Of a stretch of DNA of 64,000 nt, positions 1,546 to 64,000 are shown piece by piece. Origin of the DNA: Candidatus Omnitrophota bacterium (GTDB taxonomy: Bacteria; Omnitrophota; Gorgyraeia; Zapsychrales; JAKLDJ01); contig JAKLDJ010000002.1 in the NCBI GenBank assembly GCA_022703585.1, forward strand, positions 283,413 through 347,412, given 5' to 3'. Every line of letters starts with the position of its first letter. The stretch's first letter is position 1. Made by a program: the position numbers and the translations under genes. The notes beneath the pieces were generated by a model, which saw only the letters and a list, made by a program, of their open reading frames with translations, was not told the DNA's origin and searched no databases.

Positions 1546-2283
1546 ATGTTTATCTTTCTTCGACTGCTATTGGCTCATTTTGTGGGGGATTTTCCCCTCC
1601 AGCTGAATGTCATTTTCAGGCTGAAAAATAAAGGGTTACGAGGTATCATCCCTCATGCATTCATTATCACCCTGTGTTGTATCACGCTTTCCTGGCCCTA
1701 CCTTCATCTGCCCCAACTATGGCTGTTTGTAGCTTTTATCGGGGTCACACACCTCGCCCAGGATTCAATCAAACTCAGCTACGGTACCATCAAGTATAGC
1801 TTCTGGACCTACCTTCTTGATCAACTTTCTCATGTAGGAATCATCGCGCTTGTTTTTTTTACCGATCTTAAGAACCTGCAGCCTCCCTGCGATCAATCCA
1901 GCCTTATCGTCCGAATTTACTCCAATGACATGCTCATCGTCTATTTGATTGCGCTCATTCTCGTCACTTATAACGGATTATTCTTAATCAGAAACTTTAA
2001 GATTACCTTCATGGGAAAATCGGGAATACATCATTCTTTCGAGAAATGGTACGGGATGGTCGAGAGGGCCTTAATAGTTTCGGCCTTCTTTACCGGTGGC
2101 TACGCTTTTCTTTGGCTGCCCGCAGTAATGCTGGCCAGGCCGCTTTTATTCTTCTCGTGGAGAAAACAGCTCGGGCTTCATAAGAATTTTATTTCCTTTG
2201 TAGAAATATCTTTAAGCTGGATAATAGCCGTCATTGTCGGAGTCGCGCTGTATTTATTTCAGGCCAATTACTCTGTATATTGA
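1546..2283 (+). CDS. polytopic membrane protein, DUF3307-like (N-terminal HFVGDFPLQ motif)
   Basis: 245 aa with multiple hydrophobic helices. The N-terminal LLAHFVGDFPLQ resembles the DUF3307 signature as I recall it. No catalytic motif recognised. Confidence 0.45.
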   Translation: MFIFLRLLLAHFVGDFPLQLNVIFRLKNKGLRGIIPHAFIITLCCITLSWPYLHLPQLWLFVAFIGVTHLAQDSIKLSYGTIKYSFWTYLLDQLSHVGIIALVFFTDLKNLQPPCDQSSLIVRIYSNDMLIVYLIALILVTYNGLFLIRNFKITFMGKSGIHHSFEKWYGMVERALIVSAFFTGGYAFLWLPAVMLARPLLFFSWRKQLGLHKNFISFVEISLSWIIAVIVGVALYLFQANYSVY

Positions 2284-4527: not shown

Positions 4528-4551
4528 GAATTTTCCGTAGGTATAACTGGC

Positions 4552-5565: not shown

Positions 5566-5619
5566 CTTGCCTCCTTTATTTTTACTTTGTCTTTCTATCC
5601 GATAAGGAAAAAATTAATT

Positions 5620-6474
5620 TTAATGTTCGTGCCCGCCACCGCCGCCTATTTCATCGAGACGCTCTTCGGTATTGCGGTCTTCAATATCTTCCTGGGTGCC
5701 GATAACTTCCTCAATAACGCCTCCCTCTTCAGAGGTTTGATCAGTCTGCTGCTCAAGGGCAGATTTTTCCTCTTGCTTTGTCTCTTGCCGTTCTCTGCGC
5801 TCTGCCTCTATCTGGGCTCTGTTGCTCATCCTCCCCTCGACATTAGCAGAAAGATCCTCCATCATACCGTCAAAATTATCAAACTCCCGCGTGCTGATCT
5901 GCATCAGAGCACCTGCTGCCTCAAACCGCTCGATCAGCGTCTTAAATCCTTCCGGGAGCATGGTTTCGGAAATCTCATTCTTGTCAACATCGTAGGTCTT
6001 GATAAAAACAGTATCCTTATATGCGTAGACCTCATCCGCATCCCTCTCTACATAGACGGAATAACTGCTGCCCCTAACACCGGCTACCGCGGAGGGCGTA
6101 CTCACTTCAAAACTTAAGCCTGCCTTAATGCCTTCCAAATTGGAGTAAACTTTTCCCCGGGAAAGATCGAGCCGGTCTATGGACTCTTCGGTCGAGGATT
6201 GCAAGGCTACAAGTGTCTTGGGTTCGACCCTGATCATGTTCTTCTTTTCCGGATCAAGGGCAACCTCAGCCACGGAATGCCGTGCAGTCCTTATCAAATC
6301 TCCGATATCCACCTTCATCCCCTTCTCGGCCTTCTTCCATATATTATCCACCGGAGACTGCACTTGGACATTCCCTTCGACATAGACAATTTCCGCTGCG
6401 TTTAAAATTCTCTGGGTACCAATGACACCAAAGAATAACGCCATGCATAAAACCAACGCCTGATATTTTCTCAT
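5620..6474 (-). CDS. FecR-domain secreted protein with acidic low-complexity C-terminal tail
   Basis: FecR-like core: EIVYVEGNVQVQSPVDNIWKKAEKGMKVDIGDLIRT...VSTPSAVAGVRGSSYSV. Start moved to the internal ATG at 6474 (MRKYQALVLCMALFFGVIG signal-like N-terminus), which has a GGGAGAG RBS 6 nt upstream. C-terminus is E/R/Q-rich and ends GGGGGHEH. Confidence 0.6.
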   Translation of the reverse strand: MRKYQALVLCMALFFGVIGTQRILNAAEIVYVEGNVQVQSPVDNIWKKAEKGMKVDIGDLIRTARHSVAEVALDPEKKNMIRVEPKTLVALQSSTEESIDRLDLSRGKVYSNLEGIKAGLSFEVSTPSAVAGVRGSSYSVYVERDADEVYAYKDTVFIKTYDVDKNEISETMLPEGFKTLIERFEAAGALMQISTREFDNFDGMMEDLSANVEGRMSNRAQIEAERRERQETKQEEKSALEQQTDQTSEEGGVIEEVIGTQEDIEDRNTEERLDEIGGGGGHEH

Positions 6475-6538
6475 AACCATCTCTCCCTTTTGCATAACCC
6501 TTTGAATGAATAGCATCAATTAAACGCTCCCTTTATTG

Positions 6539-8311
6539 CTAAAAGCCCTGAGTAACAGACCACCATACATGCGGATAATGCCCGGTATCGTCTTTGGGAT
6601 CATCCTCCGATGTCGGCCAGCCAACATCCAAACGTGTTGCCAGATTCCGGTCGGGGACATTAAACAACACTCCGAAACCCGCCGAACTTAAAGTGGTAGT
6701 CTCCCTCTGCGATTCTGTGGGATTTTTTAAGATCGCCTCTCCCCAGTCATAGAAGGTAAATAATTTTACAGAATCATATAATTTCGTTTTTGAAAAAGGA
6801 ACATTGAGGTGCCGCGGGACACCAAAAGGAGGAAAAGAGAATCCTCCGCTAAACGATCTTCCTGAATCTCCGGGGGCCTGGGCGCGCGGATATCCCCGGT
6901 TATCGATAACGCCCATGATGCCTCCTATACTAAACACATTGACGCCGGTAAGAGCCTGAGAAGAAAGTTGCCATTTTCCTTTACCAATAAAATCAATTCC
7001 GGCAAAAAGTTTCTGGCGCCGTGCAACCGTTATAATATTCTTCGTATAGGCACTGCCGGCACCCGGTACAGACGTCTCGTCGCTCTTTCTGGGAGAAGCA
7101 CCCCACATCCCGGGGATCCCTTTTTCCAGGTCATTAGTAATAACCCACCGCCCGTATTTATCGGCGCGGTTAAAATCAATCCCCCACATGAGGGATCGAA
7201 ACCTGTCTTTCTTGGTAGCATGTTTCCAATCGCGATCTCCGCCATTCTGATACCAATGAATATCCATGTATTTAAAACCATACTGGGATACGAGTTCGCA
7301 ATTCGGCTCATCGATCAGGGATTGGTTAAACCAAAAATAGAACTTACGCGCGTGTTTCTCAAAATCTGTCTGCTCGTTGTCTGAGTAATAATAATCCTCG
7401 ATCTTATAGGGCATGTAATACAGTTCGAGTTTCCAGGTATTATTCAGAGGAAGAAAATAATCAATGTCCGCCAGCTGATGGGCATCGGCTTCCGTTCTTT
7501 GGACCTTGATCGTCACGGAATCATCATGGCCGGTAATATTGTTATGCGTAAGATAGGTTTTGTAGCGCCTTTGGAAGATATATTCCGATCCATAGTTATC
7601 CACCTGGAGGGTAGAATGCAACGTGGATTTATCTTTAACGGTAATAACGATATTCGTACGCCCTGTCTGCACATTAGGGTCACAGGCAACACTCACTTTT
7701 CGATCCGGATGCTTGTTGATTCTGTAAATATCCTTATTGAGCTGCCTGAAATTAAAAGGCTGGCCCTCTTTTAAGGTAATTTTCTTTTCCAAGAGCTTGG
7801 TAGAAAAGTGTTTATTCCCCTGGAACTCAATGGTACCGGTCTTGCCTTCGACCACCATAATTTCCAAAATACCGGAGCTTAACTTATCGGGAACAATGTA
7901 AGCGTACGAGGTAATATAACCTTCGCGGCTGTAGGCACGGGTAATAAGATCCGCCGCTTTCTGCATCTGTTTGGCGTTAAGTTCTTTATTCTCAAATCCG
8001 GCTTTAATCTCATCAATGGCTTCTTGGGCCAGAAAGGTCGAACCGATAACATCAATCCGGTCGATTTTTGTTTTTCCTGCGGGCAAAGTGGGCTTAGGAA
8101 TTTGCGCGTCCACTGTTTGCTTCAATGCAATAGCCGGAGATTTAGCGCTTTTGCTTACAATGTCTTTTTCTATCTGCGCCGATCTAGCGTCATCATCAGC
8201 GGCATCCTCATCAAAGGCAAAAACCCCTTGAGGATTAACAATAATCGCCAGAGCCAAAAATAGGATAAAAACGACCCCTCCACACACCGCACGCCAATTA
8301 CTTTTTACCAT
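6539..8311 (-). CDS. TpsB/ShlB/FhaC-family outer-membrane transporter (POTRA + beta-barrel)
   Basis: N-terminal TM/signal. POTRA-like segment IDRIDVIGSTFLAQEAIDEI...ILEIMVVEGKTGTIEFQGNKHFSTKLLEKKITLKEGQPFNFRQLNKDIYRINK. Long beta-rich C-terminal domain ending ...WWSVTQGF (terminal Phe). Confidence 0.7.
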   Translation of the reverse strand: MVKSNWRAVCGGVVFILFLALAIIVNPQGVFAFDEDAADDDARSAQIEKDIVSKSAKSPAIALKQTVDAQIPKPTLPAGKTKIDRIDVIGSTFLAQEAIDEIKAGFENKELNAKQMQKAADLITRAYSREGYITSYAYIVPDKLSSGILEIMVVEGKTGTIEFQGNKHFSTKLLEKKITLKEGQPFNFRQLNKDIYRINKHPDRKVSVACDPNVQTGRTNIVITVKDKSTLHSTLQVDNYGSEYIFQRRYKTYLTHNNITGHDDSVTIKVQRTEADAHQLADIDYFLPLNNTWKLELYYMPYKIEDYYYSDNEQTDFEKHARKFYFWFNQSLIDEPNCELVSQYGFKYMDIHWYQNGGDRDWKHATKKDRFRSLMWGIDFNRADKYGRWVITNDLEKGIPGMWGASPRKSDETSVPGAGSAYTKNIITVARRQKLFAGIDFIGKGKWQLSSQALTGVNVFSIGGIMGVIDNRGYPRAQAPGDSGRSFSGGFSFPPFGVPRHLNVPFSKTKLYDSVKLFTFYDWGEAILKNPTESQRETTTLSSAGFGVLFNVPDRNLATRLDVGWPTSEDDPKDDTGHYPHVWWSVTQGF

Positions 8312-8468
8312 TGACCCATCCTCCTTTTACGAATTCTAGCCTGCCAATGATTCCTTTATAGCCGTTTTTCTCTGAAACATAACACCTAGCAATATATAGG
8401 TATTATCGTAAATGCTCTACTTTGTATTGTCAAGAAAATATCTACAAATACATACAATTTTTGAAACC

Positions 8469-9137
8469 CTATTTCTCGTTTATTTTCTGAGAAAAATAAT
8501 TGATAAAGACGAAGATAAACAAAACACCGATAACCAATTGCGCCATAACCGCTATCTGCCCTGCAGCCCCCCGGGCGCAAATATCTCCAAACCCGACGGT
8601 GGTATTCGCCACCATACTGAAATACAATGCCGAAACAGGAGTCAGGTCCTGGTTCAAAAGATCAAAGCCGATATAAATAACCGCAAAATCAAAAATAACT
8701 TCCATGTAATGCACAAAAAGCAGCAAAATAGAACGGTGATACGACATCGAGACGCCGTAAATATCCGATAGGAAGATTATATTAAGGATATGGAGGACTG
8801 TTTCGCTCAATAAGTAAATAATAATAAAAACAATCAGCGGATTTTGGTATAACCCGGAAGACAAGACAAAAAGCGGAAACAGAAATTTAAAAACCGTATA
8901 CGCTTCGACGGCGAGCTTTCTGGAGAGAAATCCTCCCCGGCCGAATGCATCGCGCACCAAAAGAACGGGAAAAACAAACTGGATAGCACAAAGAAATAAC
9001 CGTACGAGGCGCTCCAGGCCGTAGGTATCATCCGCCCAAACCTTTTTGAGCAGCCTTAACTGCTGCACATAAGCTTCTGGCGGCTTATCGTCGGAAGTAC
9101 TCTGCGGGCCAATAAACAGGTGTTTGAATTTAAACAT
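8469..9137 (-). CDS. small potassium-channel-like protein (pore helix + TTVGFGD selectivity filter)
   Basis: Hydrophobic helices followed by YFSMVANTTVGFGDI (a TVGYGD-type K+ filter) and a final TM, IAVMAQLVIGVLFIFVFINYF. Confidence 0.6.
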   Translation of the reverse strand: MFKFKHLFIGPQSTSDDKPPEAYVQQLRLLKKVWADDTYGLERLVRLFLCAIQFVFPVLLVRDAFGRGGFLSRKLAVEAYTVFKFLFPLFVLSSGLYQNPLIVFIIIYLLSETVLHILNIIFLSDIYGVSMSYHRSILLLFVHYMEVIFDFAVIYIGFDLLNQDLTPVSALYFSMVANTTVGFGDICARGAAGQIAVMAQLVIGVLFIFVFINYFSQKINEK

Positions 9138-15326: not shown

Positions 15327-15925
15327 TTAGTTTCTGCCTTAAGAGCCTTGAGAAGCGTTTCGCCAAACTCTTTTGCCGAGCCCGGCCCATCGGCGGTAAT
15401 GATATTTCCGTCCTTTTCAACCGGCTTGGCCGTGTAATTAACGCCGCAGGTTTTAAGCTTGTCCCCTTCCGAGGGATAGACGGTCGCATTTTTATCTTTT
15501 AAAACACCGGCATTGGCTAATATACGCGGGGCCAGGCAAATACCGCCGAGGATTTTATTTTTGGCAATGGCTTCCTGGGCAATTTTATGCGCCAGAGGAT
15601 CGTCGATATACTGCGCCGCACCCGACCCGCCGATAAACACAACTGCATCAAAATCATCCACATTAACGTCTTGAACCAATATATCCGGCGTGGTCTTGGC
15701 CCCATTCATGCCGGTTGCTTCATTAAGCGTTGTCGAGGCAACCGTGACCAAAACTTCGTTGTTTTCAAGGATAGCTAAAGGCTGGGCAAATTCATCATCC
15801 TGAAAGTTCTCCTGTGGAATAATAAAAACAGCCTTTTTAATCATCGAATCCTGAGCAAAAACAGGAGGCAACAGGAAAGCACCTGCCACAACCAACGCTA
15901 AAGCTAAACCGAAAATCTTTTTCAT
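15323..15925 (-). CDS. DJ-1/PfpI-family protein with signal peptide (exported)
   Basis: Signal MKKIFGLALALVVAGAFLLPPVFAQ. DJ-1 fold motifs VVFIGGSG and the nucleophile elbow ILGGICLAPRILANAG with a Cys. Confidence 0.8.
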   Translation of the reverse strand: MKKIFGLALALVVAGAFLLPPVFAQDSMIKKAVFIIPQENFQDDEFAQPLAILENNEVLVTVASTTLNEATGMNGAKTTPDILVQDVNVDDFDAVVFIGGSGAAQYIDDPLAHKIAQEAIAKNKILGGICLAPRILANAGVLKDKNATVYPSEGDKLKTCGVNYTAKPVEKDGNIITADGPGSAKEFGETLLKALKAETK

Positions 15926-17934
15926 TGCCCATCTCCTCTCTTTATGTGACGTACCGGCCGGAAAGGATATTTCCCTTCTTTTTTACCGGCATAATATCCG
16001 TCGTAACCGAATTGAAAGTTCACACCCCACCCAAACGTATCTCCGTAGGTCGTCGAAGACCAGTAAAAACCAAGCGGCGCGGTTTTGGTCCCGGGGAAAA
16101 ATTTTTTATGGAACCAGCCGCCGTCCTTAAAAGAAAGGTCCATGAGCGAACCGATCTCCCGGATCGTCGGCAAGCGCCAATCGTTATGGCCGCCTAAATT
16201 TAATTCCTGGCAATGTTTCATCGCCTCTTCCCAGTTTAATTCCGGGCCCTCGTCTTTTTTCCACATGAGGTTCGTATTCAAATCACTGACCGTGCCGTCA
16301 TTGTTATCGGTAAAAGCATAGTGTTCCATATCGCCGAAATTCAAGCTTAAGCCCCCGCGCACCGCGCGCACGGGATAATAAAAACTTTTTAAGTAGCAGA
16401 TCGCGCAACCATAGGCAAAATAAACGCCCCAGGCAAAGATCGGCTCTTTATTATTCGAATCCTTAGACCAATAAAACGCCGGCAGGCAGTCCGGGAAAAA
16501 CTTTCTGTCGGTCGCCGGAGTCTGGCCGTTATAATCGACCATCATGCGCAACTCTTCGCGATTGGGCAACCGCCAATCACGAAAGCCGCCGTATCCTTTT
16601 TTATTTAACTCCTTGATAAAGCCTTGGGCATCGTCCCATGTATAGCTATCCCCTTTATAATTAACATCGTTTTGGCAAGGAGATTTAATTTCCCAAATGA
16701 GCCCGGTGTTGTTATCACGGACCATACGAAAACCTTTTTTCCAGTCAGCCTTTTCATCCAGCTCCCTGCCGCCTTCGGCTAACTTGGTAAACGAAAGCGG
16801 ATTGGTGACATAGGAACCGTCCTGGCCGTAATAACGGCCGCCTTTTTTCGGGGCCGCGATGATCCCGCCCTCGTCGGTATAACATCTTTTCTGTCCGGAA
16901 TCGGGTAATTTGAATTGAACCTTCGAGGCAACCTGCGACGGATAGACATTGCGCACCGCGCGGAACAATAGCTTGGCATTCTTACTGGCATAATAACCGT
17001 CGTAGCCGAAACAAAAATTCGTGACCCAGACATAAATTCCTTCATAGGGTGTTGAGGAAAAATAATGCAGCAACGGCGGTTTCAGTCCTTCCGCCGGAAA
17101 GAAATTCTTGTAATACCACCAGCCGCTTTCATAATTAAGATTCAAAATAGAATTCAGTTCTTTTAAATTCGGCAGGCGCCAGTCGGATTGCCCAGCCAAG
17201 CGCATATCTTTGCATACTTTAAGAGCCGAATACCAATCCATGCGCTCATTTTCGCCTTTTTGCCACATAAGACCGGTTAAGGTATCGGTAATCGTCCCGT
17301 CGGTATTATCCTTAAAACGCGACGCGTCAGACTTGCCGAAATTTTTATCGTACCCGCCCCGAACCGCACGCACATAACGCTCGCTTAACGGCGCATAGCA
17401 GATGCCGCTGCCTAGGCCAAAAAAGATACCCCAGACAAAAGGTTTTTGCATATTGTAGGGTACAATCGTCCAATAAAAATCACTTTGGCAATTGGGAAAA
17501 TATCGGGTATCGACCGCAGGCCCGGTTTTACCGTAATCGAGGATCGAACGCAGCTCATCTTTGTTCGGCAGGCGCCAATCGGAAAACCCGCCGTATTTCT
17601 TTTTATTAAGTTCCTTAATATATACGTCTTGGGCTTTTTTCCAGGTATACCGGTCTTCGCAGTAATTCACATCGCCTTTTTGGGGAGATTTGACCTCCCA
17701 GATGAGGCCGGTATTATTATCCAGAACAGCGCGATAACCGTCTTGCCAATCGGAAGAATCCGCAATGGGTTTACCGGTTTTTCCCAGCTTGGTAAAAGAC
17801 ATGGGGTTTACCACAAAACAGCCGTTCTGGCCCCAGAGTTCATCCTGCGGCGTAACCATGATCTCCTTGCCTTCCTTATCATAGCACCGGATATTTCCGG
17901 CATCGGGCAGGCGGAATATTTTTGATTCCTTCAT
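15922..17934 (-). CDS. DUF1566 (Lcl C-terminal domain) repeat protein
   Basis: Four copies of the DUF1566 signature ...DNNTGLIWE.KSP...Y.W..A......LN...YGGF.DWRLP...EL..... For example DWRLPNKDELRSIL, DWRLPNLKELNSIL, DWRLPNREELRMMV and DWRLPTIREIGSLM. Confidence 0.7.
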   Translation of the reverse strand: MKESKIFRLPDAGNIRCYDKEGKEIMVTPQDELWGQNGCFVVNPMSFTKLGKTGKPIADSSDWQDGYRAVLDNNTGLIWEVKSPQKGDVNYCEDRYTWKKAQDVYIKELNKKKYGGFSDWRLPNKDELRSILDYGKTGPAVDTRYFPNCQSDFYWTIVPYNMQKPFVWGIFFGLGSGICYAPLSERYVRAVRGGYDKNFGKSDASRFKDNTDGTITDTLTGLMWQKGENERMDWYSALKVCKDMRLAGQSDWRLPNLKELNSILNLNYESGWWYYKNFFPAEGLKPPLLHYFSSTPYEGIYVWVTNFCFGYDGYYASKNAKLLFRAVRNVYPSQVASKVQFKLPDSGQKRCYTDEGGIIAAPKKGGRYYGQDGSYVTNPLSFTKLAEGGRELDEKADWKKGFRMVRDNNTGLIWEIKSPCQNDVNYKGDSYTWDDAQGFIKELNKKGYGGFRDWRLPNREELRMMVDYNGQTPATDRKFFPDCLPAFYWSKDSNNKEPIFAWGVYFAYGCAICYLKSFYYPVRAVRGGLSLNFGDMEHYAFTDNNDGTVSDLNTNLMWKKDEGPELNWEEAMKHCQELNLGGHNDWRLPTIREIGSLMDLSFKDGGWFHKKFFPGTKTAPLGFYWSSTTYGDTFGWGVNFQFGYDGYYAGKKEGKYPFRPVRHIKRGDGQ

Positions 17935-22388: not shown

Positions 22389-23951
22389 CTAAACCCCTTT
22401 CGGCTTACCCTTATAGCGAACCGCAAGCATCGTGATATCGTCCGATTGCGGCGCGCCGTTGGCAAAGGCAAAGACCTCCTCGCGGACCTTTCCGATCATT
22501 TCTTTAATATCCTTGTCTTTCTGCTGCATGATGCATGCCTTGAGGCCGGATTCGGAAAACATCTTGCGCTCCAGGTTCATGGCCTCGGTCACTCCGTCGG
22601 TATATAGGAAAATAGTGTCTCCAGGATTGAGTTTATTGTTTATATTCTCGCACTTGGCATTTTCCATAACCCCCACCACAAATCCCCCCGGGACCTTGAT
22701 AAAATCAACTTCTCCGTCTTTACCGATAACTAACGGCGGGTTATGCCCGGCATTGCAATATTGCAGTTCACCGGTTTCGATGTTTAACAGCACACAGAAA
22801 ACCGTGACAAAAAGGCAGGTTTGATTATCCGGATAAAGGATGTTATTGACCCGAGCCAATGTTTCAGCAGCCGAAAATCCCTGTTTGGCCTCGGTTTTGA
22901 TAAGCGCCTTGCTGATAGCCATAAAAAGGGCTGCCGGGACTCCCTTACCCGAAACATCCCCAATAACAAAACATAAATGTTTATCGTCGACAAAGAAAAA
23001 ATCATACAGATCGCCGCCCACCTCTTTGGCCGGGTCCATCATGGCAAAAATATCAAATTCTTTTCTCTGGGGGAACACGCTGGGCAACATGCTCATCTGA
23101 ATTTCTTGAGCAATGCGCAATTCGCTTTCGATGCGTTCCCGGGCTTCGGTCTCCGCCTTAAGATTCTCCATGAAGCGCTTGATGCTTAGCTGCATCAATT
23201 CAATCGCCAACGCCGGGTCCTGGGCAAAGAATTTAATCACCTCATCCCGGCCCATAGTGTAGGCTTCGATATCTTCTTCGCATAATGCGGAGGCCGTCCG
23301 CACTTTGAAGGGAGAAAAAATCCCCATCTCTCCGATAACATCCCCTGATTTAATAAACTTATTAATTTCTACTAATTTGATAGCACCTTTTTTTATATAA
23401 AACATCCTGTCGGCTTTATCGCCCGCTTTAAAAAGAAAATCGCCTTTCTTATATGTCTCTTGTTTCATCAGATCGACGGGCCAGCGGCAGGAAGTTTGCA
23501 CGGCAGAGAGGTCTTTGATGGCGGGTTTCTGGATATTGGTCACCATGCAGCTATTAAATTTAACCAAAGTAAGAACATTCTTTCCGTTCTCTCGTCGATA
23601 TCTGACCTCATCCATGATTTTACGCATCATAAATATCCCCAGGCCGCCTATTTTTCGTTCTTCTAAAGGCGCATGGATATCCGGCTCGGGCAATGAGAGC
23701 GGATCAAAAGGGATCCCGGAATCAATAATCTCGATCTCGAAACAGTTGTCCTGGTTTACATAGGTCACGGCCAACTCGCCGTCTTTCCCGGGATAGGCGT
23801 AGTTGATGACGTTGACCAGGGCTTCCTCGCAGGCAATCTGGATCTTATTGATCTGGTCTTTGACAAAACCCTGGCGGGATGCCCCTTCCTTGATAAAGGT
23901 AAGCATCTTTTGAAGATTTTCTAATTTTGCAGAAAAGGCTAAACGTTCCAT
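22389..23951 (-). CDS. three-domain partner-switching regulator: RsbW/SpoIIAB-like HATPase kinase + cNMP-binding + PP2C (SpoIIE/RsbU-type) phosphatase
   Basis: Residues 1-130 are an anti-sigma Ser kinase fold (ACEEALVNVINYAY...IEIIDSGIPFD...GGLGIFMMRKIMDEV). The middle is CAP-family cNMP binding (FLFKAGDKADRMFYIKKGAIKLVE...GEMGIF). The C-terminus is PP2C (MLPSVFP...GGDLYDFFFVDDKHLCFVIGDVSGKGVPAALFMA...DGVTEA). Confidence 0.8.
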   Translation of the reverse strand: MERLAFSAKLENLQKMLTFIKEGASRQGFVKDQINKIQIACEEALVNVINYAYPGKDGELAVTYVNQDNCFEIEIIDSGIPFDPLSLPEPDIHAPLEERKIGGLGIFMMRKIMDEVRYRRENGKNVLTLVKFNSCMVTNIQKPAIKDLSAVQTSCRWPVDLMKQETYKKGDFLFKAGDKADRMFYIKKGAIKLVEINKFIKSGDVIGEMGIFSPFKVRTASALCEEDIEAYTMGRDEVIKFFAQDPALAIELMQLSIKRFMENLKAETEARERIESELRIAQEIQMSMLPSVFPQRKEFDIFAMMDPAKEVGGDLYDFFFVDDKHLCFVIGDVSGKGVPAALFMAISKALIKTEAKQGFSAAETLARVNNILYPDNQTCLFVTVFCVLLNIETGELQYCNAGHNPPLVIGKDGEVDFIKVPGGFVVGVMENAKCENINNKLNPGDTIFLYTDGVTEAMNLERKMFSESGLKACIMQQKDKDIKEMIGKVREEVFAFANGAPQSDDITMLAVRYKGKPKGV

Positions 23952-41143: not shown

Positions 41144-41228
41144 GCGGAAGTGGCGGAATTGGTATACGCGTACGCCTCAGGCGCGTATGGGGAAACCCTT
41201 GAGGGTTCGAGTCCCTCCTTCCGCACCA
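41144..41228 (+). tRNA. tRNA-Leu (anticodon CAG), class II with long variable arm, CCA encoded
   Basis: Acceptor stem GCGGAAG/CTTCCGC (7 bp). Anticodon stem TACGC/GCGTA with loop CT-CAG-GC. Variable-arm hairpin GGGG-aaa-CCC. T-arm GAGGG-TTCGAGT-CCCTC. Discriminator A then CCA. Confidence 0.85.
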
Positions 41229-56917: not shown

Positions 56918-58408
56918 TTATCTACCATCCTTTTTCAGAATAATCTGCTGTATGCCCTCTCGAGACCGCACCCACCCTTCCAGAAAGTCAAGCCAGTATG
57001 CCGCATCTTGTGAATCGATCGTTCGCCGTGGGGTCCGGCTCACCTCGACATTGCCCCCCCGCGCCAGAATATCTCTATTCTTATCAATATAATAGCGAAA
57101 AACTTTTATAATATCCAGATCACGGGAGGTGTTGTAATAATCCATTAAACGAAGGATAAAATCAATGTCAATCATAGCAGACTCAGCTTCAAGCGTCGAA
57201 AGATATTTCTTTTCCAGGTTATGAAAATCAGGGATACGGTCAACGGCCGGCGAGCGCAGGATATCGGCTAAAATGACCTGCGCTAAGGCTCTAGCTAATA
57301 CTAATCCGCTGCGCGCCGTCCAGGCCCCCTCAAGGTTTGGAAGAGGAAGATACTTGGTGTTAAAAACATGCAGGTTCTCATAGAACGCCTGAGAGGCTCG
57401 GAAAACAAAAAGCCCCTGAGAAGGCAATCCGGGCAGCACGACAGCGTTAATATCGGGAATCGGTTCGAACTTCTCAAACATATCGCCTCCGAGAGGCACA
57501 TCCGGCGCGGTATGCCATGCCGGAAACATCGCGATTACCGGGATTTTATTGTCCCTCGTAACGGCAACCAGCTCCTGAACGTTGGATCGTATCTTCTCTA
57601 ACAGCTGGGCCTTGTCTGCCTGGGAACGCCGATAGCGCTCGAAAAATCCATAACAGACATGTCCCAAAATGGGCGTGCGTGCATGGAGCGTCAAGAGCCG
57701 CTCTAAAACCTCGTCGCTGTAGGCACCTTTGACCTGCCGTATCTCCTGCAAAAATGATTTCAGGGGAGCTTCCTCTTCTTGCCGCTTCGGTATCCGATCC
57801 GCAAGATAGATCCGTTGTAACTTTTTTACGATACAGACAACATAACTCCGCAAGACAATCCCGCGGGGAAACTGGTGTACATTTCTATATTCATCAAAAT
57901 ATTCCCTGTCACTATACGTGTGCTCCCAGGACACGGGAAATAATACCACGTCGGGTTTGTAGCCCAGGGATTTCTTCAGAGTCCGCAGATTCAACCCCAT
58001 ACCCCAACCGTTATGGGCAAGGTTAATGACTTTAAATTTCTTGTTGGCGCCAAGTGAATTGAGAATATCTTCCAGAAAAAATGCCGCGGAACCAAAATGC
58101 ATATTGCAATCGCCAAAAATAAAAATTCTAAATTCATCGCCGGGTTTTTTAACCGAGAAACTTTGCGGATTAACATCCCAGTACTGCGTCCTCCAGACAT
58201 AAAACCGGCCCGCCTTTTGATAGCACAAAGGAAGGTTGTCATACCCACGGCTATAGAACGGAGTCGTCTTGACATAGAGATCTTCACCGATATAACGGGG
58301 AGTATAAAAGAGCCTGGCGGCAATCTCCAGAGCGATAAAAAGAATGACAGCCCCCATGATAGAGGCCGGTATTTTCTTAAAACCTGGCATAAAAGAATTC
58401 TTTCCCAC
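56918..58408 (-). CDS. membrane-anchored SGNH/DltD- or AlgX/AlgJ-like partner protein of the MBOAT
   Basis: N-terminal TM. About 450-aa periplasmic domain containing FIFGDCNMHFGSA (an SGNH-like block-I position). Overlaps the MBOAT gene by 32 nt. The assignment rests largely on context. Confidence 0.45.
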   Translation of the reverse strand: MGKNSFMPGFKKIPASIMGAVILFIALEIAARLFYTPRYIGEDLYVKTTPFYSRGYDNLPLCYQKAGRFYVWRTQYWDVNPQSFSVKKPGDEFRIFIFGDCNMHFGSAAFFLEDILNSLGANKKFKVINLAHNGWGMGLNLRTLKKSLGYKPDVVLFPVSWEHTYSDREYFDEYRNVHQFPRGIVLRSYVVCIVKKLQRIYLADRIPKRQEEEAPLKSFLQEIRQVKGAYSDEVLERLLTLHARTPILGHVCYGFFERYRRSQADKAQLLEKIRSNVQELVAVTRDNKIPVIAMFPAWHTAPDVPLGGDMFEKFEPIPDINAVVLPGLPSQGLFVFRASQAFYENLHVFNTKYLPLPNLEGAWTARSGLVLARALAQVILADILRSPAVDRIPDFHNLEKKYLSTLEAESAMIDIDFILRLMDYYNTSRDLDIIKVFRYYIDKNRDILARGGNVEVSRTPRRTIDSQDAAYWLDFLEGWVRSREGIQQIILKKDGR

Positions 58409-59834
58409 CGCTTACTCCTGACGCTACAATTAAAATCGACAAAATACAATACACGAACATTTTAACCCAGGGGCTCCATTTGAGAATAAGAAACTGATCC
58501 CGGCGTATATACTGCATAACTTCCAGAGTGACGAGTATTCCGATATACCAGAACATCGCTTTGAGGGTTGCCAGGCCATAGGGAGTAATTTCAAATCGAA
58601 GAAAAATGTTCTTGATAAAATGGCCGGCTTGGCGCACCGATTGGGAACAAAATAATAATTCGCCAAGAACAAAAAGGTGAAAGGTGACAATAATTTTAAA
58701 TCCATCAAGCCACGGGCGCACCTTTGAGGAAAAAATGAAACTATCCTGCCGCGTAGAAAACAGCCCCCACTCTCGTATAGAATATTGAAGACACAGAAGC
58801 ATCCCGTGATATACCCCCCAGAGAACAAACACCCACCGGGCTCCGTGCCAAACCCCCATAATCGCCATGGTCGCAATAATGGCGATTCCCGTCCCAAATG
58901 CCTTTTGCCCGCCAAGCCGCAGCTGCGTCCGGTTAAGATAGTAGAAAATATAATCCCGGCACCATCCGGACAGACTGATGTGCCACCGTCGCCAGATATC
59001 AGAAGGGTTCTTGGCGAAGAATGGCAGGTTAAAGTTAGGCATTGTTTTAAATCCAAGGCAACCCGCCAGGCCTATGGCGATATCGCTATAGCCGGAAAAA
59101 TCCGCATAAATCCAAAAAGTCGCCGCATAGGCCCCGATAAGCGTCTCAAAGCCCGAATCGACGGCCCCTTGAGAAAATACACCATTGACGATCGGCAAGA
59201 GGTTATCGGCAATAAAACATTTTTTGAACAGGCCCCAAAAAATCAGGTAGCAGTTTTTATTAAACTCGTCGCGGGAAAATAACCTCGGCGCGGCAAGCTG
59301 GGGCAAGAAATGCACTGCCCGCTCAATAGGCCCGGCAAGAATCTGCGGGAAAAAAGACAGGTAGGTTGCGTAATGGCTAAAATCCCTTACCGGCTCTGTA
59401 ATGACTTTCCGGTAGACATCTATGGTGTAACTCATCGATTTGAACAAATAGTATGAGATGCCGATCGGAAGGATAATGCCCAGATGCCACGGCGAGACAA
59501 TAGGCATCCCCATCTTTCCCAGCAAAAGACAGAAGGTATCGATAAAGAAATTGCAGTATTTAAAAAGAAACAGGATGGCAAGGTCGCTCGAGAGGGCTAT
59601 CCAAAGAAGGATAGTCTTTGTCCGCTTAGTTTCCGCACGGGAGATTTTTATCGCACACGCATAATCGACGCAGGTAGGAACTAATATCAAAAACAAAAAC
59701 CGCCAATCCCACACGGCATAAAAAAGATAGCTGCCGAGAAGCAGCAACAGATTCTGTCCGCGGCACTTGAGGCGCCAATACACGGCCAGAAAGAGAACAA
59801 ATAATATCCAAAAGTAAAACGAAGTAAAGGACAT
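58377..59834 (-). CDS. MBOAT-family membrane O-acyltransferase (DltB/AlgI-like)
   Basis: Multi-TM. Conserved MBOAT His region WRRWHISLSGWCRDYIFY and downstream MGVWHGARW. Confidence 0.85.
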   Translation of the reverse strand: MSFTSFYFWILFVLFLAVYWRLKCRGQNLLLLLGSYLFYAVWDWRFLFLILVPTCVDYACAIKISRAETKRTKTILLWIALSSDLAILFLFKYCNFFIDTFCLLLGKMGMPIVSPWHLGIILPIGISYYLFKSMSYTIDVYRKVITEPVRDFSHYATYLSFFPQILAGPIERAVHFLPQLAAPRLFSRDEFNKNCYLIFWGLFKKCFIADNLLPIVNGVFSQGAVDSGFETLIGAYAATFWIYADFSGYSDIAIGLAGCLGFKTMPNFNLPFFAKNPSDIWRRWHISLSGWCRDYIFYYLNRTQLRLGGQKAFGTGIAIIATMAIMGVWHGARWVFVLWGVYHGMLLCLQYSIREWGLFSTRQDSFIFSSKVRPWLDGFKIIVTFHLFVLGELLFCSQSVRQAGHFIKNIFLRFEITPYGLATLKAMFWYIGILVTLEVMQYIRRDQFLILKWSPWVKMFVYCILSILIVASGVSGGKEFFYARF

Positions 59835-59838
59835 AATG

Positions 59839-61149
59839 TTAGTTGAGCAAATCCGGTGTAAAGGATTCTCGCGCTATGCTCACGGAAGCACCGTTAACAA
59901 GCAGTTCGCGCGGCGTCGGACGCGACAAGAAAAAGAGCGGGCTTGCGCTATACGCATACGCCCCTGAATTCAAAATGGCAATATAGTGGCCGATCTGGGG
60001 ATTGGCGATCGCGACCTTTTCACCGAGAATATCAAAAGCGGTACACAATGGGCCCGTCAGCGTCACGCGTTTTCTTGCCGCGGAGCCCGCATTCGAAAGG
60101 TTACACATTTTAAAATTCTGCCGCAGGAGCGGCCCGAACCTTCCCGCTGCCGCCAAATGATGATTGAGGCCTCCGTCGAGCGTACAGATCGTTCTTCCCC
60201 GCGACTGCTTGATGTCAACGACCTGTGCGATATAGATCCCTGCCTCAGCCACGAGATAGCGCCCCAATTCAAATATCGCTGTCATACGCGAAAGGCCATT
60301 CTCGCGCTTAAACACCTCTATCTGACGGCGCGCCCGGGAACAGACGCGCTCAATATTTAACGGCTTTTGACCGGAATGATAGGTAACGCCAAAACCGCCG
60401 CCGAAATTGATGCGCTCGGGCTTAAGCGATGTCACCTTCATCATCTGCGCGGATACCTGTAAGACATACCTCACATTCTCCAAAAGCGCCTCTTCATCAA
60501 GGCACTGTGTCCCCGAATAAACGTGAATGCCGGTATACCGGCAATGGGGCATCTTTTTCAAGCATCTGAAAACATCCGCGCATTGTTCCTCGTCGATACC
60601 AAATTGCGACGGCCCCCCTCCCATCTTGACCATAAATTTTCCCGGAACGCTGGCGGGATTAATGCGAACGGAAACATTCGCCCGCTTTCTTAAAGTCGCG
60701 GCGATCTTCTCTATCCGCTTAAGCTCAGCAAGAGATTCCGTGCTGATGGAACCGATTTGATGAGTAATCGCCAGTGATAGCTCCGCATCCGTTTTCCCGG
60801 GCGCGGCAAAGCTGATTTGCCCGGGGCGAAAACCAACGCTTAACGCCAGCGCAAGTTCTCCGCCCGAAGAGACATCAACTCCATCGATCAAGGGACGCAT
60901 GTGCGCAAGAATTGCCGCATTCGGATTTGCCTTAACTGAGTAGTAGAGCGCGGTACCGTCGGTAAAATACTGTTTAACCGTCTTAATCGTATGGCTGATG
61001 CACCCAAGATCATAGAGAAAAAGCGGCGTACCGTATTTCCTAGCGACGGCATGCAGGTCAACCGCGTTAAGGCAAACATGATTATTGTTAACCCGAAGAT
61101 TAAGTCCCATCGCTATGCCCTTGAGTTTTTTTCCGTGCATCGGCCTCAT
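59839..61149 (-). CDS. PLP-dependent decarboxylase of the diaminopimelate/ornithine decarboxylase (fold-type III) family
   Basis: PLP-Lys motif LYYSVKANPN. GGG motif INFGGGFGVTY. ELGRYLVAEAG. Substrate-specificity region TGPLCTAFDILGE. Confidence 0.8.
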   Translation of the reverse strand: MRPMHGKKLKGIAMGLNLRVNNNHVCLNAVDLHAVARKYGTPLFLYDLGCISHTIKTVKQYFTDGTALYYSVKANPNAAILAHMRPLIDGVDVSSGGELALALSVGFRPGQISFAAPGKTDAELSLAITHQIGSISTESLAELKRIEKIAATLRKRANVSVRINPASVPGKFMVKMGGGPSQFGIDEEQCADVFRCLKKMPHCRYTGIHVYSGTQCLDEEALLENVRYVLQVSAQMMKVTSLKPERINFGGGFGVTYHSGQKPLNIERVCSRARRQIEVFKRENGLSRMTAIFELGRYLVAEAGIYIAQVVDIKQSRGRTICTLDGGLNHHLAAAGRFGPLLRQNFKMCNLSNAGSAARKRVTLTGPLCTAFDILGEKVAIANPQIGHYIAILNSGAYAYSASPLFFLSRPTPRELLVNGASVSIARESFTPDLLN

Positions 61150-61417
61150 GCGTGCTTTCGGCTTTTTTGATTTCTGTAATTAACGATACCATGCCTTCGA
61201 TAGAGCGAAACTTTTTGTCAAAGAAATGTTCCTCTTGAAATTTGACTTTAAATGTCGCCTCAAGAAAAGCCGCCAGATCAAACGCCCCCAGCGAGTCGAT
61301 GACACCTTCCTCGAAGAGATTAGCCGTTTCGTCAACAGCATCCTCGCCATTCAGCTTATACTGTCCGATAATATACTGTCGTATCTTGTTCTTAATATCA
61401 GCGTACTGAGCGTCCAT
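61100..61417 (-). CDS. acyl/peptidyl carrier protein (DltC-like)
   Basis: About 100 aa with the phosphopantetheine-attachment motif GVIDSLGAFDL. The start is ambiguous: ATG at 61417 or 61435, both overlapping the ligase stop at 61398. Confidence 0.7.
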   Translation of the reverse strand: MDAQYADIKNKIRQYIIGQYKLNGEDAVDETANLFEEGVIDSLGAFDLAAFLEATFKVKFQEEHFFDKKFRSIEGMVSLITEIKKAESTHEADARKKTQGHSDGT

Positions 61418-62954
61418 TTTCTTCCCGCAGTCCATATTGTTTTTTTACGTATGCCCTGTCGATTTTTCCGGTGGGCGTTTTCGGCAACTCATCGACGATT
61501 TCTATCTCGCGGGGCACCATATGCCCGGGGAGCTCTTTCTTGCAAAAATCGGATATTGTTTTTTCATAAACCCCATGCGCCGGCGGCACGCCGTTGAGAG
61601 AAACAACCGCTTTAATCTTGTGCCCCAGCATCTCGTCATCAACCCCGAAAACAACGGCCTCGCGTACCGGTTCCAATCGATGCAGGACGTGTTCGATCTC
61701 ATGCGGGCTGATCCGATGGCCCAGGCACTTGATCATCTCATCATTCCTGCCGATAAAATACAAAAAACCTTGCGCGTCTTTTTTAACAATATCGCCGGAC
61801 CAGACCGCCGGCGTTTGCTGCCGGTCAAAGGGTAACGGTTTGAGCACCCGGGCAGTTGCCGAGGAATCGTTCCAGTACCCTTGGAATATGACGCCGCCGC
61901 GATGAACCAACTCGCCGGCCTCATCAACGCCACATTCCTTACCCTCCGGATTGATAATCGATAGCGTAACGCCGTCAATCGCCTTTCCTATCGAGGTTGG
62001 CCGGTGGTCAATCTCCTCAGGCGGCAGATACGTCGAGCGAAAAGCCTCGGTCAAACCGTACATCAGATATATTTGTGTGTTTTTTAGCTTTTGTCTTAAT
62101 TCACGGATATAAGCAACAGGAATAGAACCTCCTGAATTGGTAATATACCGTAAATCCGGAAACATGAGCTTTCGAAACATCGATAGCGGCTGCAGCAGCA
62201 TCACCCAGATGCTCGGCACCCCGGCAAAACCCGTAACCCGCTTATGGATCAGCGTATCGCAAATATCATTGGGAAACAACGACCGCTGCAAAACCAGTGT
62301 CGCGCCAACCCGCAATGCCGTCAGCAGTTGATTGAGGCCGTAATCAAAGTAAAACGGCAAAACGCTGATAATGACATCATCAGGCGTATTCTTTAAATAC
62401 CCCGTTACGATCTCTGCGCCAAGGGTTAAATTCCCATGATTCAGCATAACCCCTTTGGGAAACCCTGTCGAACCGGAGGTATAGATAATCGTCGCCAAAT
62501 CCGTTTTAGCGATCCCTTCACCGCTGGAAGGCGTCCGGAGATACGGAGCGAGAATAGAATCAAACGCACCCGCGTCGATCATCAACAAATCTTTAACACC
62601 CCCCAACCCCCCGTTTTTCCCGGGCGCCATGATCATACATTTTATACCGCAGTGCTCGATATGATAGAGGAGCTGCGCTGTGGTCAGGCGCGGGTTAAGG
62701 CTGACAAATACCCCGCCGGCAGCAGCAATACCAAAAATAGCAATGACGGCCTCAATGCTTTTTCCCAAAGAAATCCCAACCCTGTCTCCCGCGCGAACCC
62801 CCTGCTCGATTAAATACCGCGCCAGGGCATTAGCACGCGTTTGAAGCTGTCCATAGGTCAGGGAAACAGCGCCGTCCATAAGCGCTGCCTTCTCCGGAAA
62901 AAGTTCCGCGCTTTTCTGAAGCATGTCAACAATCGTCACAAAAGAATCTGTCAT
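61398..62954 (-). CDS. AMP-dependent synthetase/ligase (adenylation enzyme, DltA-like)
   Basis: AMP-binding core IIYTSGSTGFPKGV. YGLTE, GEL, DE and C-terminal PKTPTGKIDR motifs. Confidence 0.85.
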   Translation of the reverse strand: MTDSFVTIVDMLQKSAELFPEKAALMDGAVSLTYGQLQTRANALARYLIEQGVRAGDRVGISLGKSIEAVIAIFGIAAAGGVFVSLNPRLTTAQLLYHIEHCGIKCMIMAPGKNGGLGGVKDLLMIDAGAFDSILAPYLRTPSSGEGIAKTDLATIIYTSGSTGFPKGVMLNHGNLTLGAEIVTGYLKNTPDDVIISVLPFYFDYGLNQLLTALRVGATLVLQRSLFPNDICDTLIHKRVTGFAGVPSIWVMLLQPLSMFRKLMFPDLRYITNSGGSIPVAYIRELRQKLKNTQIYLMYGLTEAFRSTYLPPEEIDHRPTSIGKAIDGVTLSIINPEGKECGVDEAGELVHRGGVIFQGYWNDSSATARVLKPLPFDRQQTPAVWSGDIVKKDAQGFLYFIGRNDEMIKCLGHRISPHEIEHVLHRLEPVREAVVFGVDDEMLGHKIKAVVSLNGVPPAHGVYEKTISDFCKKELPGHMVPREIEIVDELPKTPTGKIDRAYVKKQYGLREENGRSVR

Positions 62955-62962
62955 AAATTATA

Positions 62963-64000
62963 TTACCCTCTAGTAACAGCCCTCAATGGCGGCACGCTAT
63001 TATTGTGTAATTTCTTCCATCGGTTATCCGCCATTATAATATCAGGCAGGGAATACGGGTTGGGTATCCCTTTTTGAAGACACCGCTCCTGGAACCGGCA
63101 CAAGCGGTTAAACATCTCTTCTCTCGTCGGATTATTGGACGTTGTCAGCGTATGCATCAAAAGCGCGTCGGCAACCTTTGGGGGATACACAAAGTCAACG
63201 TTACGTTCCTTCATCCATGATTCGGAATCCGACTGCCCCGCAGAAAAAAAATAAAAAGGATGCGGATTAGCCTCATAAATATCATCCGCGCACTCATCCA
63301 GGAGCGCAAGGCTTGCCTGAAAATCATCCTCGGTTTCTCCGGGATGCCCGATAACCCAGAAGGTCGTCACCTTGATGCCGGCCCCGGCAAGGCTGGTTAT
63401 TGTCCCTTTTATTTCTTCAACGCTCACGTCCTTATGCATCGTATCAAGAACACGCTGCGAAGCACTCTCAACGCCAATGCGGGCACGGTACAACCCCGCC
63501 TGACGGTAACGCGCACAGTTCTGCGCATCCGCTATGCGCGCATCTGCCCGCAGGTAAACATCCCAATAGACCGTCAGCTTTCTATGTATAATCTCTTCGG
63601 CTACCTCATCAATAATCGGATTCATCAGTGAATCTGTAAAGAAAAATGCCGATGTGCGGTGCGTATTACGAAGCGCATCCAGATCATCGACGATACGCCC
63701 CGTCTTTTTTCTGCGGTACGTGCCCCAGTACATTGATTCTGAACAAAAACTGCAGTGGAACGGACAGCCGCGCGATGCATATGTTGGAACGTACAGGTAA
63801 CGATGCATATCCATATCCGAATAATCGGCTAATGCAAGAGATGCCATGTCCGCAACACTATTACCAACATCTTTTAGGCAAAAAAATCGTTTCTCCTTCG
63901 GTAATTCACCGGTCAACAATTTAAGAAATGTTACTTCACCTTCTCCGGTAATAACCTTATCCACGTATGGGGCCTTGGCTAAAAATTTTTCAAAGTCCAG
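62963..64000 (-). CDS. radical SAM enzyme, probably cobalamin-binding class; 5' end runs off the window
   Basis: YASRGCPFHCSFCS gives the CxxxCxxC cluster motif. Upstream ...VITGEGEVTFLKLL resembles the end of a B12-binding domain. My translation shows the frame stays open to position 64000 (LDFEKFLAKAPYVDK...), so the ORF-track 'M' is an internal GTG. Confidence 0.75.
   Translation of the reverse strand: MDFEKFLAKAPYVDKVITGEGEVTFLKLLTGELPKEKRFFCLKDVGNSVADMASLALADYSDMDMHRYLYVPTYASRGCPFHCSFCSESMYWGTYRRKKTGRIVDDLDALRNTHRTSAFFFTDSLMNPIIDEVAEEIIHRKLTVYWDVYLRADARIADAQNCARYRQAGLYRARIGVESASQRVLDTMHKDVSVEEIKGTITSLAGAGIKVTTFWVIGHPGETEDDFQASLALLDECADDIYEANPHPFYFFSAGQSDSESWMKERNVDFVYPPKVADALLMHTLTTSNNPTREEMFNRLCRFQERCLQKGIPNPYSLPDIIMADNRWKKLHNNSVPPLRAVTRG

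Follow-up and report, generated by a model that had tools for sequence, protein, structure and literature searches.

Analysis of a 64,000-nucleotide stretch of contig JAKLDJ010000002.1 from a Candidatus Omnitrophota bacterium (assembly GCA_022703585.1, positions 283,413 to 347,412; hereafter the window) identifies a string of six co-directional open reading frames (ORFs) on the minus strand between window positions 56918 and 64000. Their products are a radical S-adenosylmethionine (SAM) enzyme, an AMP-forming ligase, a small carrier protein, a pyridoxal phosphate (PLP)-dependent decarboxylase, a membrane acyltransferase of the MBOAT family and a membrane-anchored protein of the SGNH fold, here called p6 (Table 1). 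The tight spacing and the positions of the six genes given in the initial annotation of this region both hold: gaps of 8 nt and 4 nt separate the radical SAM gene from the ligase gene and the decarboxylase gene from the MBOAT gene, and there are overlaps of 38 nt (ligase/carrier), 50 nt (carrier/decarboxylase) and 32 nt (MBOAT/p6). The overlap lengths depend on the choice of start codon, and the alternative ATG starts that we considered still leave the genes overlapping or abutting. The same six-gene string is present on independent assemblies of the same organism. Taken together the genes point to a putative system in which an amino acid is loaded on a carrier, decarboxylated there, and passed across the membrane to an envelope polymer. 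The component modules are known, and it is their joining that may be new: a full-text literature search of incomplete coverage, and therefore of weak evidential value, found no description of an MBOAT protein combined with a carrier and a decarboxylase.

Table 1. Positions of the operon genes, of the acyl-shuttle motif and of four other ORFs in the window
Feature	Position	Strand	Remarks
Radical SAM enzyme	62963 to beyond 64000	-	C-terminal 345 codons in window
Ligase (ANL superfamily, stand-alone)	61398-62954	-	518 aa; AMP-binding and AMP-binding_C
Carrier, peptidyl carrier protein (PCP)-like	61100-61435	-	111 aa; PP-binding
PLP decarboxylase, BtrK type, alanine-racemase fold	59839-61149	-	436 aa; Orn_Arg_deC_N and Orn_DAP_Arg_deC
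MBOAT membrane acyltransferase	58377-59834	-	485 aa; MBOAT domain
Acyl-shuttle hexapeptide FFYARF at MBOAT C-terminus	58380-58397	-	FxYxxF match; translation confirmed
p6, membrane-anchored SGNH-fold partner with C-terminal helical extension	56918-58408	-	496 aa; non-canonical active site
CHASE2-adenylate/guanylate cyclase	2254-4527	-
ShlB/FhaC-type two-partner-secretion transporter	6539-8311	-
Protein with four Lcl_C domains	15922-17934	-
SpoIIE phosphatase fused to HATPase and cNMP-binding domains	22389-23951	-

Gene products of the operon

Searches with the profile hidden Markov models of Pfam and NCBIfam confirm the domain identities proposed earlier for the first five proteins. The decarboxylase is most similar to the NCBIfam model TIGR03099 (PLP-dependent decarboxylase, exosortase A system-associated; 428.3 bits against a cut-off of 478.45). 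Its top match of solved structure is BtrK (7ru7), the L-glutamyl-[BtrI carrier protein] decarboxylase, at 267 bits (E 2e-78), far ahead of diaminopimelate decarboxylases (at most 157 bits), D-Orn/Lys decarboxylases (at most 114) and Lys/Orn decarboxylases (at most 56). The PLP-binding Lys73 (codon 60931-60933) lies in a confirmed YSVKAN motif, and a family alignment of 31 sequences shows no variation in the catalytic columns. The substrate motif of LysA is CES; at this position the window enzyme has CTA (GPLCTAFD) and BtrK has CTP, and the Cys-Thr pair is invariant across the family. We can thus reject a bona fide LysA, since the score against the lysA equivalog TIGR01048 (265.7 bits) falls below its cut-off of 297.9, BtrK ranks well above the diaminopimelate decarboxylases, and the motif is CTA. 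The initial annotation had named a LysA identity as one outcome that would undo its proposal, and had cited BtrK as the nearest precedent; the former fails and the latter is indeed the best solved match. By analogy with BtrK we infer that the decarboxylase acts on a carrier-tethered amino acid, and the ligase and carrier genes beside it are consistent with this.

Two groups of related loci illustrate the range of contexts in which such decarboxylases are found (L and P numbers are our own designations for loci and homologues). On the P0006 contig a decarboxylase 52% identical to that of the window follows genes for a carrier, a ligase and a glutamate mutase E subunit (Met_asp_mut_E), in that order, and the locus is flanked by two B12 radical SAM genes, a methyltransferase and a polysaccharide deacetylase; by analogy it mirrors a vicenistatin-like 3-methylaspartate route, outside the actinomycetes. 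At L086 (7391-13541) and L088 (937-5647), closest homologues at 52-54% identity occur with neither ligase nor carrier; they adjoin an M20 peptidase or an uncharacterised protein, near a radical SAM-SPASM gene and two small ORFs, in what looks like a neighbourhood for a ribosomally synthesized and post-translationally modified peptide.

The ligase matches AMP-binding at 6e-81, in addition to AMP-binding_C, and its best NCBIfam model is TIGR03098 (540.0 bits against a cut-off of 592.35). Its closest solved relatives are adenylation domains of nonribosomal peptide synthetases (NRPS), malonyl-CoA synthetase, and beta-aminoacyl-acyl carrier protein (ACP) synthetases, VinN among them. We mapped the ten specificity positions ourselves by motif alignment, and the predicted pocket code, DYNATSMRSK, is identical in the TIGR03098 member of Geobacter hydrogenophilus (L019) and near-invariant in 74 ligases of the family; the amine-binding Asp235 and the pocket Arg are invariant in all 74. 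Such a pocket fits an amino acid that retains a second carboxylate, so that the specificity code, which the initial annotation had proposed to read, predicts an acidic amino acid. A single case, L109, fits the roles given to these two residues: its ligase, 50% identical to that of the window, has the amine-binding Asp replaced by Ser and the Arg kept (SYSATAMRSK), and the decarboxylase is absent. The L109 locus (3722-9006) consists of ligase, carrier, MBOAT and SGNH partner, and its ligase code suggests a non-amino dicarboxylic acyl group.

For the window ligase there is a weak preference for an Asp-type substrate over Glu because of the glutamate mutase link at P0006, and because gamma-aminobutyryl (GABA) thioesters are prone to lactamisation and no enzyme that would install a protecting group is encoded. 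Of the product types suggested in the initial annotation, the GABA and beta-alanyl types are kept, and the cadaverine type is unlikely, as both the predicted pocket and the characterised cassettes indicate Asp or Glu attached by its side-chain carboxyl. A fatty-acyl ligase working with a lipid ACP was also considered and rejected in view of the invariant amine-binding Asp, the PCP-like carrier and the BtrK-like decarboxylase.

The carrier matches PP-binding at 27.9 bits (cut-off 20.8) and has a confirmed IDSLG motif at 61286-61300, with the codon of the phosphopantetheine-bearing Ser48 at 61292-61294. Among carriers of solved structure the nearest are PigG and PltL, both of the type II peptidyl class, and similarity to DltC is weak; by sequence the protein is PCP-like and not of the fatty acid synthase type.

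The MBOAT domain (PF03062) scores 64.9 bits against a cut-off of 27 (1e-17). The only relative of solved structure is DltB (104 bits), alignment with which shows the WHG and RWH histidine motifs to be conserved. The last six residues, FFYARF, match the FxYxxF acyl shuttle, a hexapeptide whose Tyr is auto-acetylated in PatA and which the Dlt system carries on a separate microprotein, DltX (PMC12148441). Its sequence therefore gives the protein the PatA/AlgI architecture, with the shuttle fused at the C-terminus, so that no DltX would be needed. Its earlier description as DltB-like thus holds for the solved relative, but the cut-off of the DltB family is missed and the build is that of PatA and AlgI. 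All MBOAT-SGNH pathways except Dlt are said to lack a carrier protein as they use acyl-CoA (PMC12148441), yet here an MBOAT of the non-Dlt architecture stands in an operon that holds a carrier. The terminal FxYxxF is also found in the MBOATs of L003, L034, L039, L051, L083-L085 and L108-L111.

No match to p6 was found in Pfam, NCBIfam or PADLOC, and a word-indexed homologue search returned only p6 itself. An exhaustive HMMER search recovered 66 relatives, of which two are full-length and most others are about 345 aa and cover the N-terminal 200 residues of p6. When p6 and 31 relatives are aligned, 28 of the 32 match Lipase_GDSL_2, 8 match ALGX, and four SGNH blocks are visible; DltD appears, as a weak match, in the Foldseek list for p6, and the N-terminus of p6 is a transmembrane helix. 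The proposal of a membrane-anchored SGNH partner is therefore supported at the level of the fold. In L003 (12735-15416, 893 aa) and L110 (6253-8385, 710 aa) the SGNH partner carries a long fused array of tetratricopeptide repeats.

The window portion of the radical SAM protein matches Radical_SAM at 1.6e-18 and contains CPFHCSFC, which fits CX3CX2C. The N-terminal domain falls beyond the end of the window, and on the same contig the full gene (L001 6574-8187) encodes 537 aa with both the B12-binding PF02310 and the Radical_SAM PF04055 domains, confirming the B12-binding domain that had been anticipated. By its domains the protein is a class B (B12-binding) radical SAM enzyme; its best NCBIfam matches are B12 radical SAM families, all far under cut-off, and no subfamily cut-off is reached. 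An enzyme of this class adjoins the ligase in the window, on the same strand, and in L003 and L110, on the divergent strand. The L003 and L110 enzymes are orthologous (55% identity), and that of the window is only 22-25% identical to them; the radical SAM protein as a conserved orthologous member of the system is thus rejected, and it is the enzyme class alone that recurs.

Gene order and carrier lineage in related loci

The closest homologues of the window MBOAT form a distinct clade at 48-57% identity, with the next at 44% or less. In each of the five in-clade loci examined, an AMP-ligase and a PP-binding carrier lie immediately upstream of the MBOAT and its partner, and three of the five also have the decarboxylase. 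L003 has exactly the gene order of the window, as does L110, and L108, from another Omnitrophota genome, has the carrier after the decarboxylase. The decarboxylase is missing from L109 and from L111, where aminotransferase, HMGL-like, NicX and RraA-like genes are found instead. Ligase and carrier lie upstream at 5/5 in-clade loci, as against 0/9 distant loci that have an FxYxxF MBOAT and an SGNH gene and whose sequence extends 2 kb or more upstream; P0197, an out-of-clade control, has the MBOAT and its partner only. The alternative raised at the outset, that the decarboxylase is an unrelated insertion, fails on the recurrence of its synteny with ligase, carrier, MBOAT and SGNH genes at L003, L108 and L110.

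A second pattern concerns the carrier. Compared with the carriers of the five in-clade MBOAT loci, that of the window scores 96, 95, 83.5, 82.6 and 57 bits, whereas none of the carriers from 41 other ligase-decarboxylase loci gives more than 40 bits (the median across all 46 compared is about 27), even though the ligases and decarboxylases of those 41 loci are 36-50% identical to those of the window. The similarity persists where the ANL-type ligase is a different one (31% identity at L108, 22% at L111) or the decarboxylase is missing. Judged from these scores the lineage of the carrier goes with the MBOAT clade rather than with the ligase or the decarboxylase, as one would expect of a carrier that serves as donor to the MBOAT.

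At L111 (941-10026) the in-clade MBOAT is preceded by genes for a carrier, a class I/II aminotransferase, HMGL-like and NicX proteins, an unrelated AMP-ligase and an RraA-like protein. Here the same export module seems to draw on another route of acyl synthesis.

Seen from the decarboxylase, a genome scan with an alignment query gave 80 loci with family decarboxylases at 36-53% identity, and a family ligase adjoins the decarboxylase in 73 of them, usually with the carrier upstream of the ligase. Within the gene cluster of the ligase and decarboxylase, L034, L039 and L051 have an FxYxxF MBOAT with an SGNH partner. In L034 and L039 this pair follows, on the same strand, a hexapeptide transferase, a Wzx-type flippase and an AT3 acyltransferase, and in L051 it lies upstream on the opposite strand. 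Three further loci have short MBOATs without the FxYxxF motif (L027 4844-9881, L048 7218-12247 and L033 2956-9456). These are of DltB length (391-462 aa), lie within about 1.5 kb of the decarboxylase and ligase, and may need a separate DltX-like microprotein; L048 and L033 also encode a sulfotransferase, together with a partner protein of some 385 aa that has no annotation. An apparent fusion of MBOAT and carrier in L033 was rejected as a wrong-frame ORF in a high-GC contig. At the closest ligase-decarboxylase loci that lack an MBOAT (L009 11222-13371 and L012 11339-13271), genes for a conserved protein of 286 aa and for a deacetylase resembling LmbE/BshB1 come after the decarboxylase gene, an arrangement that hints at N-acylation of a de-N-acetylated amino sugar.

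Seen from the SGNH protein, a p6-family gene comes directly after an FxYxxF MBOAT in all 16 loci with upstream sequence; none of these 16 has a carrier or a decarboxylase.

A possible acylation route and its alternatives

With slightly better than even confidence, we read the operon as a Dlt-like, carrier-protein-fed MBOAT-SGNH system that would acylate an envelope polymer with a beta-alanyl- or GABA-type group. What the sequences show directly is which domains and folds are present, that catalytic motifs are intact, how the homologues rank and that the synteny is conserved; from sequence and gene context we infer a route of five steps. The ligase would adenylate an acidic amino acid, most likely Asp or its 3-methyl derivative and less likely Glu, activating the side-chain carboxyl and thioesterifying it to the phosphopantetheine arm of the carrier. 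The PLP decarboxylase would then remove the free alpha-carboxyl on the carrier to give a beta-alanyl-type (or GABA-type) thioester; this step is proposed because of the homology to BtrK and the precedents of VinO, FlvO and CtaF. In the Btr, Vin, Flv and Cta pathways (BtrJ/I/K, VinN/L/O, FlvN/L/O and CtaD/E/F), Asp, 3-methyl-Asp or Glu is attached to the carrier via its side-chain carboxyl and loses the alpha-carboxyl there, yielding beta-alanyl, 3-aminoisobutyryl and GABA thioesters (PMC11284099; PMC11350588). More speculatively, the B12 radical SAM enzyme might C-methylate the tethered group or the acceptor, in parallel to the glutamate mutase route. As the gene context suggests, the carrier would deliver its acyl group to the MBOAT on the cytoplasmic side of the membrane, in the way that DltC supplies DltB, and the MBOAT would pass it to the Tyr of its own C-terminal FFYARF at the outer face, as PatA does with acetyl. 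Finally, the SGNH-fold partner would hand the group to a periplasmic or surface polymer to form an ester with a free amine, and the surface would be expected to become less negatively charged, as in D-alanylation.

Several observations weigh against this reading, and some of them concern p6. The nucleophile position, which is Ser in 29 of the 32 aligned sequences, is Cys101 (codon 58106-58108) within a confirmed GDCNMH motif (residues 99-104, 58097-58114 on the minus strand); the oxyanion Asn of block III is replaced by His163, and the Asp and His of block V by Leu359 and Ala362. Only the closest relative, P0122 (at L083), has the same Cys and has likewise lost Asp and His, and both proteins keep the CNMH motif and the His of an HxFxxKY stretch. 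The partners encoded at L003 and L108-L111 retain the catalytic Ser. A pseudo-enzyme is one possibility and a newly evolved Cys-His site another, and the protein may be inactive or work differently; possible substitutes for the triad, to judge from the sequence, are His104, His163 and His347. Other points concern the cassette. An MBOAT lies within 10 kb in only 7 of the 80 ligase-decarboxylase loci, and elsewhere the cassette, on this evidence, clearly works with other transferases. For two decarboxylases 52-54% identical to that of the window (P0004 and P0005), the contig encodes neither ligase nor carrier, so that carrier dependence is not universal in the clade. The assignment of the pocket Arg to Stachelhaus position 330 needs an ungapped alignment, and of the two LgrA modules only one can be aligned without a gap over the stretch after YGxTE, the other requiring a gap of 2 residues. 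As regards a polysaccharide acceptor, no exosortase or polysaccharide genes were seen among ten large window ORFs sampled.

It is also possible, and in our view unlikely, that the operon joins two independent modules, an MBOAT-SGNH pair that O-acetylates from acetyl-CoA in the manner of PatA/PatB or AlgI/AlgJ, and a cassette that serves a transferase elsewhere. The MBOAT could be a plain O-acetyltransferase because MBOATs of the same PatA/AlgI build with a fused FxYxxF are thought to use acyl-CoA, and because no carrier accompanies the more distant homologues that share the SGNH partner family; both facts count against the carrier-fed reading as well. The two modules are also three genes apart in L034 and L039, with other acyltransferases in the operon, and most ligase-decarboxylase loci are without an MBOAT. 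Such independence does not account for the ligase and carrier directly upstream in 5/5 in-clade loci, or for a carrier lineage that follows the MBOAT clade. In the window, moreover, just 4 nt separate decarboxylase and MBOAT genes, and the island, flanked by housekeeping genes, has no other candidate acyltransferase.

The order of the first two steps could be reversed, with the decarboxylase acting first on a free diaminopimelate-like or Asp-like amino acid and the ligase then loading the amine-bearing acid on the carrier. The descent of the family from diaminopimelate decarboxylases, its 266 bits with the lysA model, and the lack of a nearby carrier for P0004 and P0005 would be in keeping with this order. 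We nevertheless consider it improbable, as BtrK is by far the closest characterised relative, the lysA score is under its cut-off, and the invariant pocket Arg of the ligase suggests a substrate with its second carboxylate still present; in VinO, thioester formation must precede decarboxylation (PMC11284099). Least likely, and very improbable, is a small diffusible or lipid product such as a beta-amino-acid starter unit or an aminoacylated lipid, since, for all that the characterised ligase-carrier-decarboxylase triads belong to secondary metabolism and a radical SAM enzyme is present, there is no polyketide synthase (PKS), NRPS or condensation enzyme in the island or the related loci examined, the latter encode flippases, glycosyltransferases and polysaccharide deacetylases, and the characterised bacterial MBOAT-SGNH pairs described all acylate extracellular polymers (PMC12148441).

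Known systems and the surroundings of the operon

The carrier-fed acylation system proposed here resembles several known systems in part. With the Btr (butirosin), Vin (vicenistatin), Flv (fluvirucin) and Cta (closthioamide) pathways it shares a ligase, a stand-alone carrier and a PLP decarboxylase. VinN-type beta-aminoacyl-ACP synthetases are among the better matches of the window ligase, and a glutamate mutase neighbours the cassette at P0006 as in the vicenistatin cluster. BtrJ differs in being an ATP-grasp enzyme and not an ANL ligase. In all four pathways the product feeds a cytoplasmic PKS, NRPS or aminoglycoside acyltransferase, whereas the window cassette precedes a membrane export and acylation pair.

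With Dlt the operon shares a ligase that loads a small carrier, an MBOAT that would transfer to the Tyr of an FxYxxF motif, and an SGNH-fold protein that would transfer to a polymer (for Dlt, PMC12148441). No DltA model (TIGR01734 or PRK04813) is among the 25 best matches of the window ligase, the carrier scores 23.0 bits against the DltC model NF003464 (cut-off 68) and 18.5 bits against TIGR01688 (cut-off 52), and the MBOAT scores 175.8 bits against a TIGR04091 (DltB) cut-off of 375. There is no DltX, the shuttle being fused to the MBOAT, and between genes so closely packed there is no space for the ORF of a microprotein; p6 has no DltD family match and its Ser-His-Asp triad is replaced. The window system also goes beyond Dlt in its PLP decarboxylase and B12 radical SAM enzyme and in its host, a diderm of a candidate phylum with LptF/LptG encoded nearby. 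As far as these comparisons reach, it is Dlt-like in logic and falls outside Dlt by every membership test; the Dlt-like logic of ligase, carrier, MBOAT and SGNH protein that the initial annotation described is thus supported, but none of the proteins belongs to a Dlt family.

The PatA/PatB type is matched in the MBOAT domain with its conserved His, the C-terminal FxYxxF and the adjacent membrane-anchored SGNH-fold partner, and departed from in the SGNH Ser-His-Asp triad. The donor in PatA/PatB, and by extension in AlgI/AlgJ, is acetyl-CoA, and such pairs are described as having no carrier, whereas the window and the five closest loci have ligase and carrier directly upstream. The AlmE/AlmF/AlmG system of Vibrio cholerae, which modifies lipid A with glycine, is likewise a carrier-based envelope aminoacylation in a Gram-negative; AlmG is an LpxL-type lipid A acyltransferase and not an MBOAT, and Alm is not known to have an SGNH partner or a decarboxylase.

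The nearest curated counterpart of the ligase and decarboxylase is the pair TIGR03098/TIGR03099, an uncharacterised "exosortase A system-associated" acyl-CoA ligase and PLP decarboxylase defined by genome context, and the pairing itself is not new. The two models are the best NCBIfam matches of the window proteins, which miss both cut-offs, whereas the Geobacter proteins of L019 pass them (788 and 555 bits). The carrier gene usually precedes the ligase gene in loci of this family, whereas in the window it lies between ligase and decarboxylase and belongs to a different carrier lineage. No functional study of the exosortase-associated pair was found in the full-text literature search, the coverage of which is incomplete.

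At present a two-way split is recognised, with a carrier donor and separate DltX in Dlt, and an acyl-CoA donor and MBOAT-fused shuttle in all other systems. The operon and its relatives suggest a third arrangement, in which the donor is a carrier, the shuttle is fused, and the acyl group is chemically edited on the carrier before export. Tentatively, and with slightly less than even confidence, we propose that an unrecognised clade of carrier-fed MBOAT-SGNH systems is present in Omnitrophota and other uncultured lineages and exports acyl groups beyond acetyl and D-alanyl, combining the carrier donor of Dlt with the fused Tyr shuttle of PatA, and that TIGR03098/TIGR03099 form a cassette for decarboxylation on the carrier, supplying omega-aminoacyl donors with which polysaccharides are decorated. 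The group would be of the beta-alanyl or 3-aminoisobutyryl type in the window, and other groups would be expected where the tailoring enzymes differ, as at L109 and L111. If this is true, a new cationic envelope decoration is predicted in little-known diderm phyla, a widespread curated gene pair of exopolysaccharide loci gains its first mechanistic hypothesis, and L109, without a decarboxylase, and L111, with other tailoring enzymes, are natural variants with which to study donor choice by MBOAT proteins.

The operon lies between metG, LemA, DUF2207 and a gene for a protein of about 240 aa on its upstream side, and mtnA, thiL, tsaE, tsaB, alr and lptF/lptG downstream, and is a self-contained island among the housekeeping genes of a diderm. 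That the island is part of an exosortase locus was considered and, as far as the window shows, set aside: neither the housekeeping flanks nor the ten sampled ORFs lend it support. A scan for promoters and terminators gave no usable operon boundary; p6 and mtnA are 8 nt apart, with no convincing terminator. Just past the end of the window (L001 3320-6549) are the LemA, DUF2207 and ~240-aa genes, with a 24-nt gap before the radical SAM gene, and the ~240-aa protein, which has no significant family match, might be a member of the operon. Elsewhere the window encodes a CHASE2 cyclase, a two-partner-secretion transporter, an Lcl_C-domain protein and a SpoIIE phosphatase fusion (Table 1), and the one RNA gene found in it is a tRNA-Leu(CAG) at 41144-41228.

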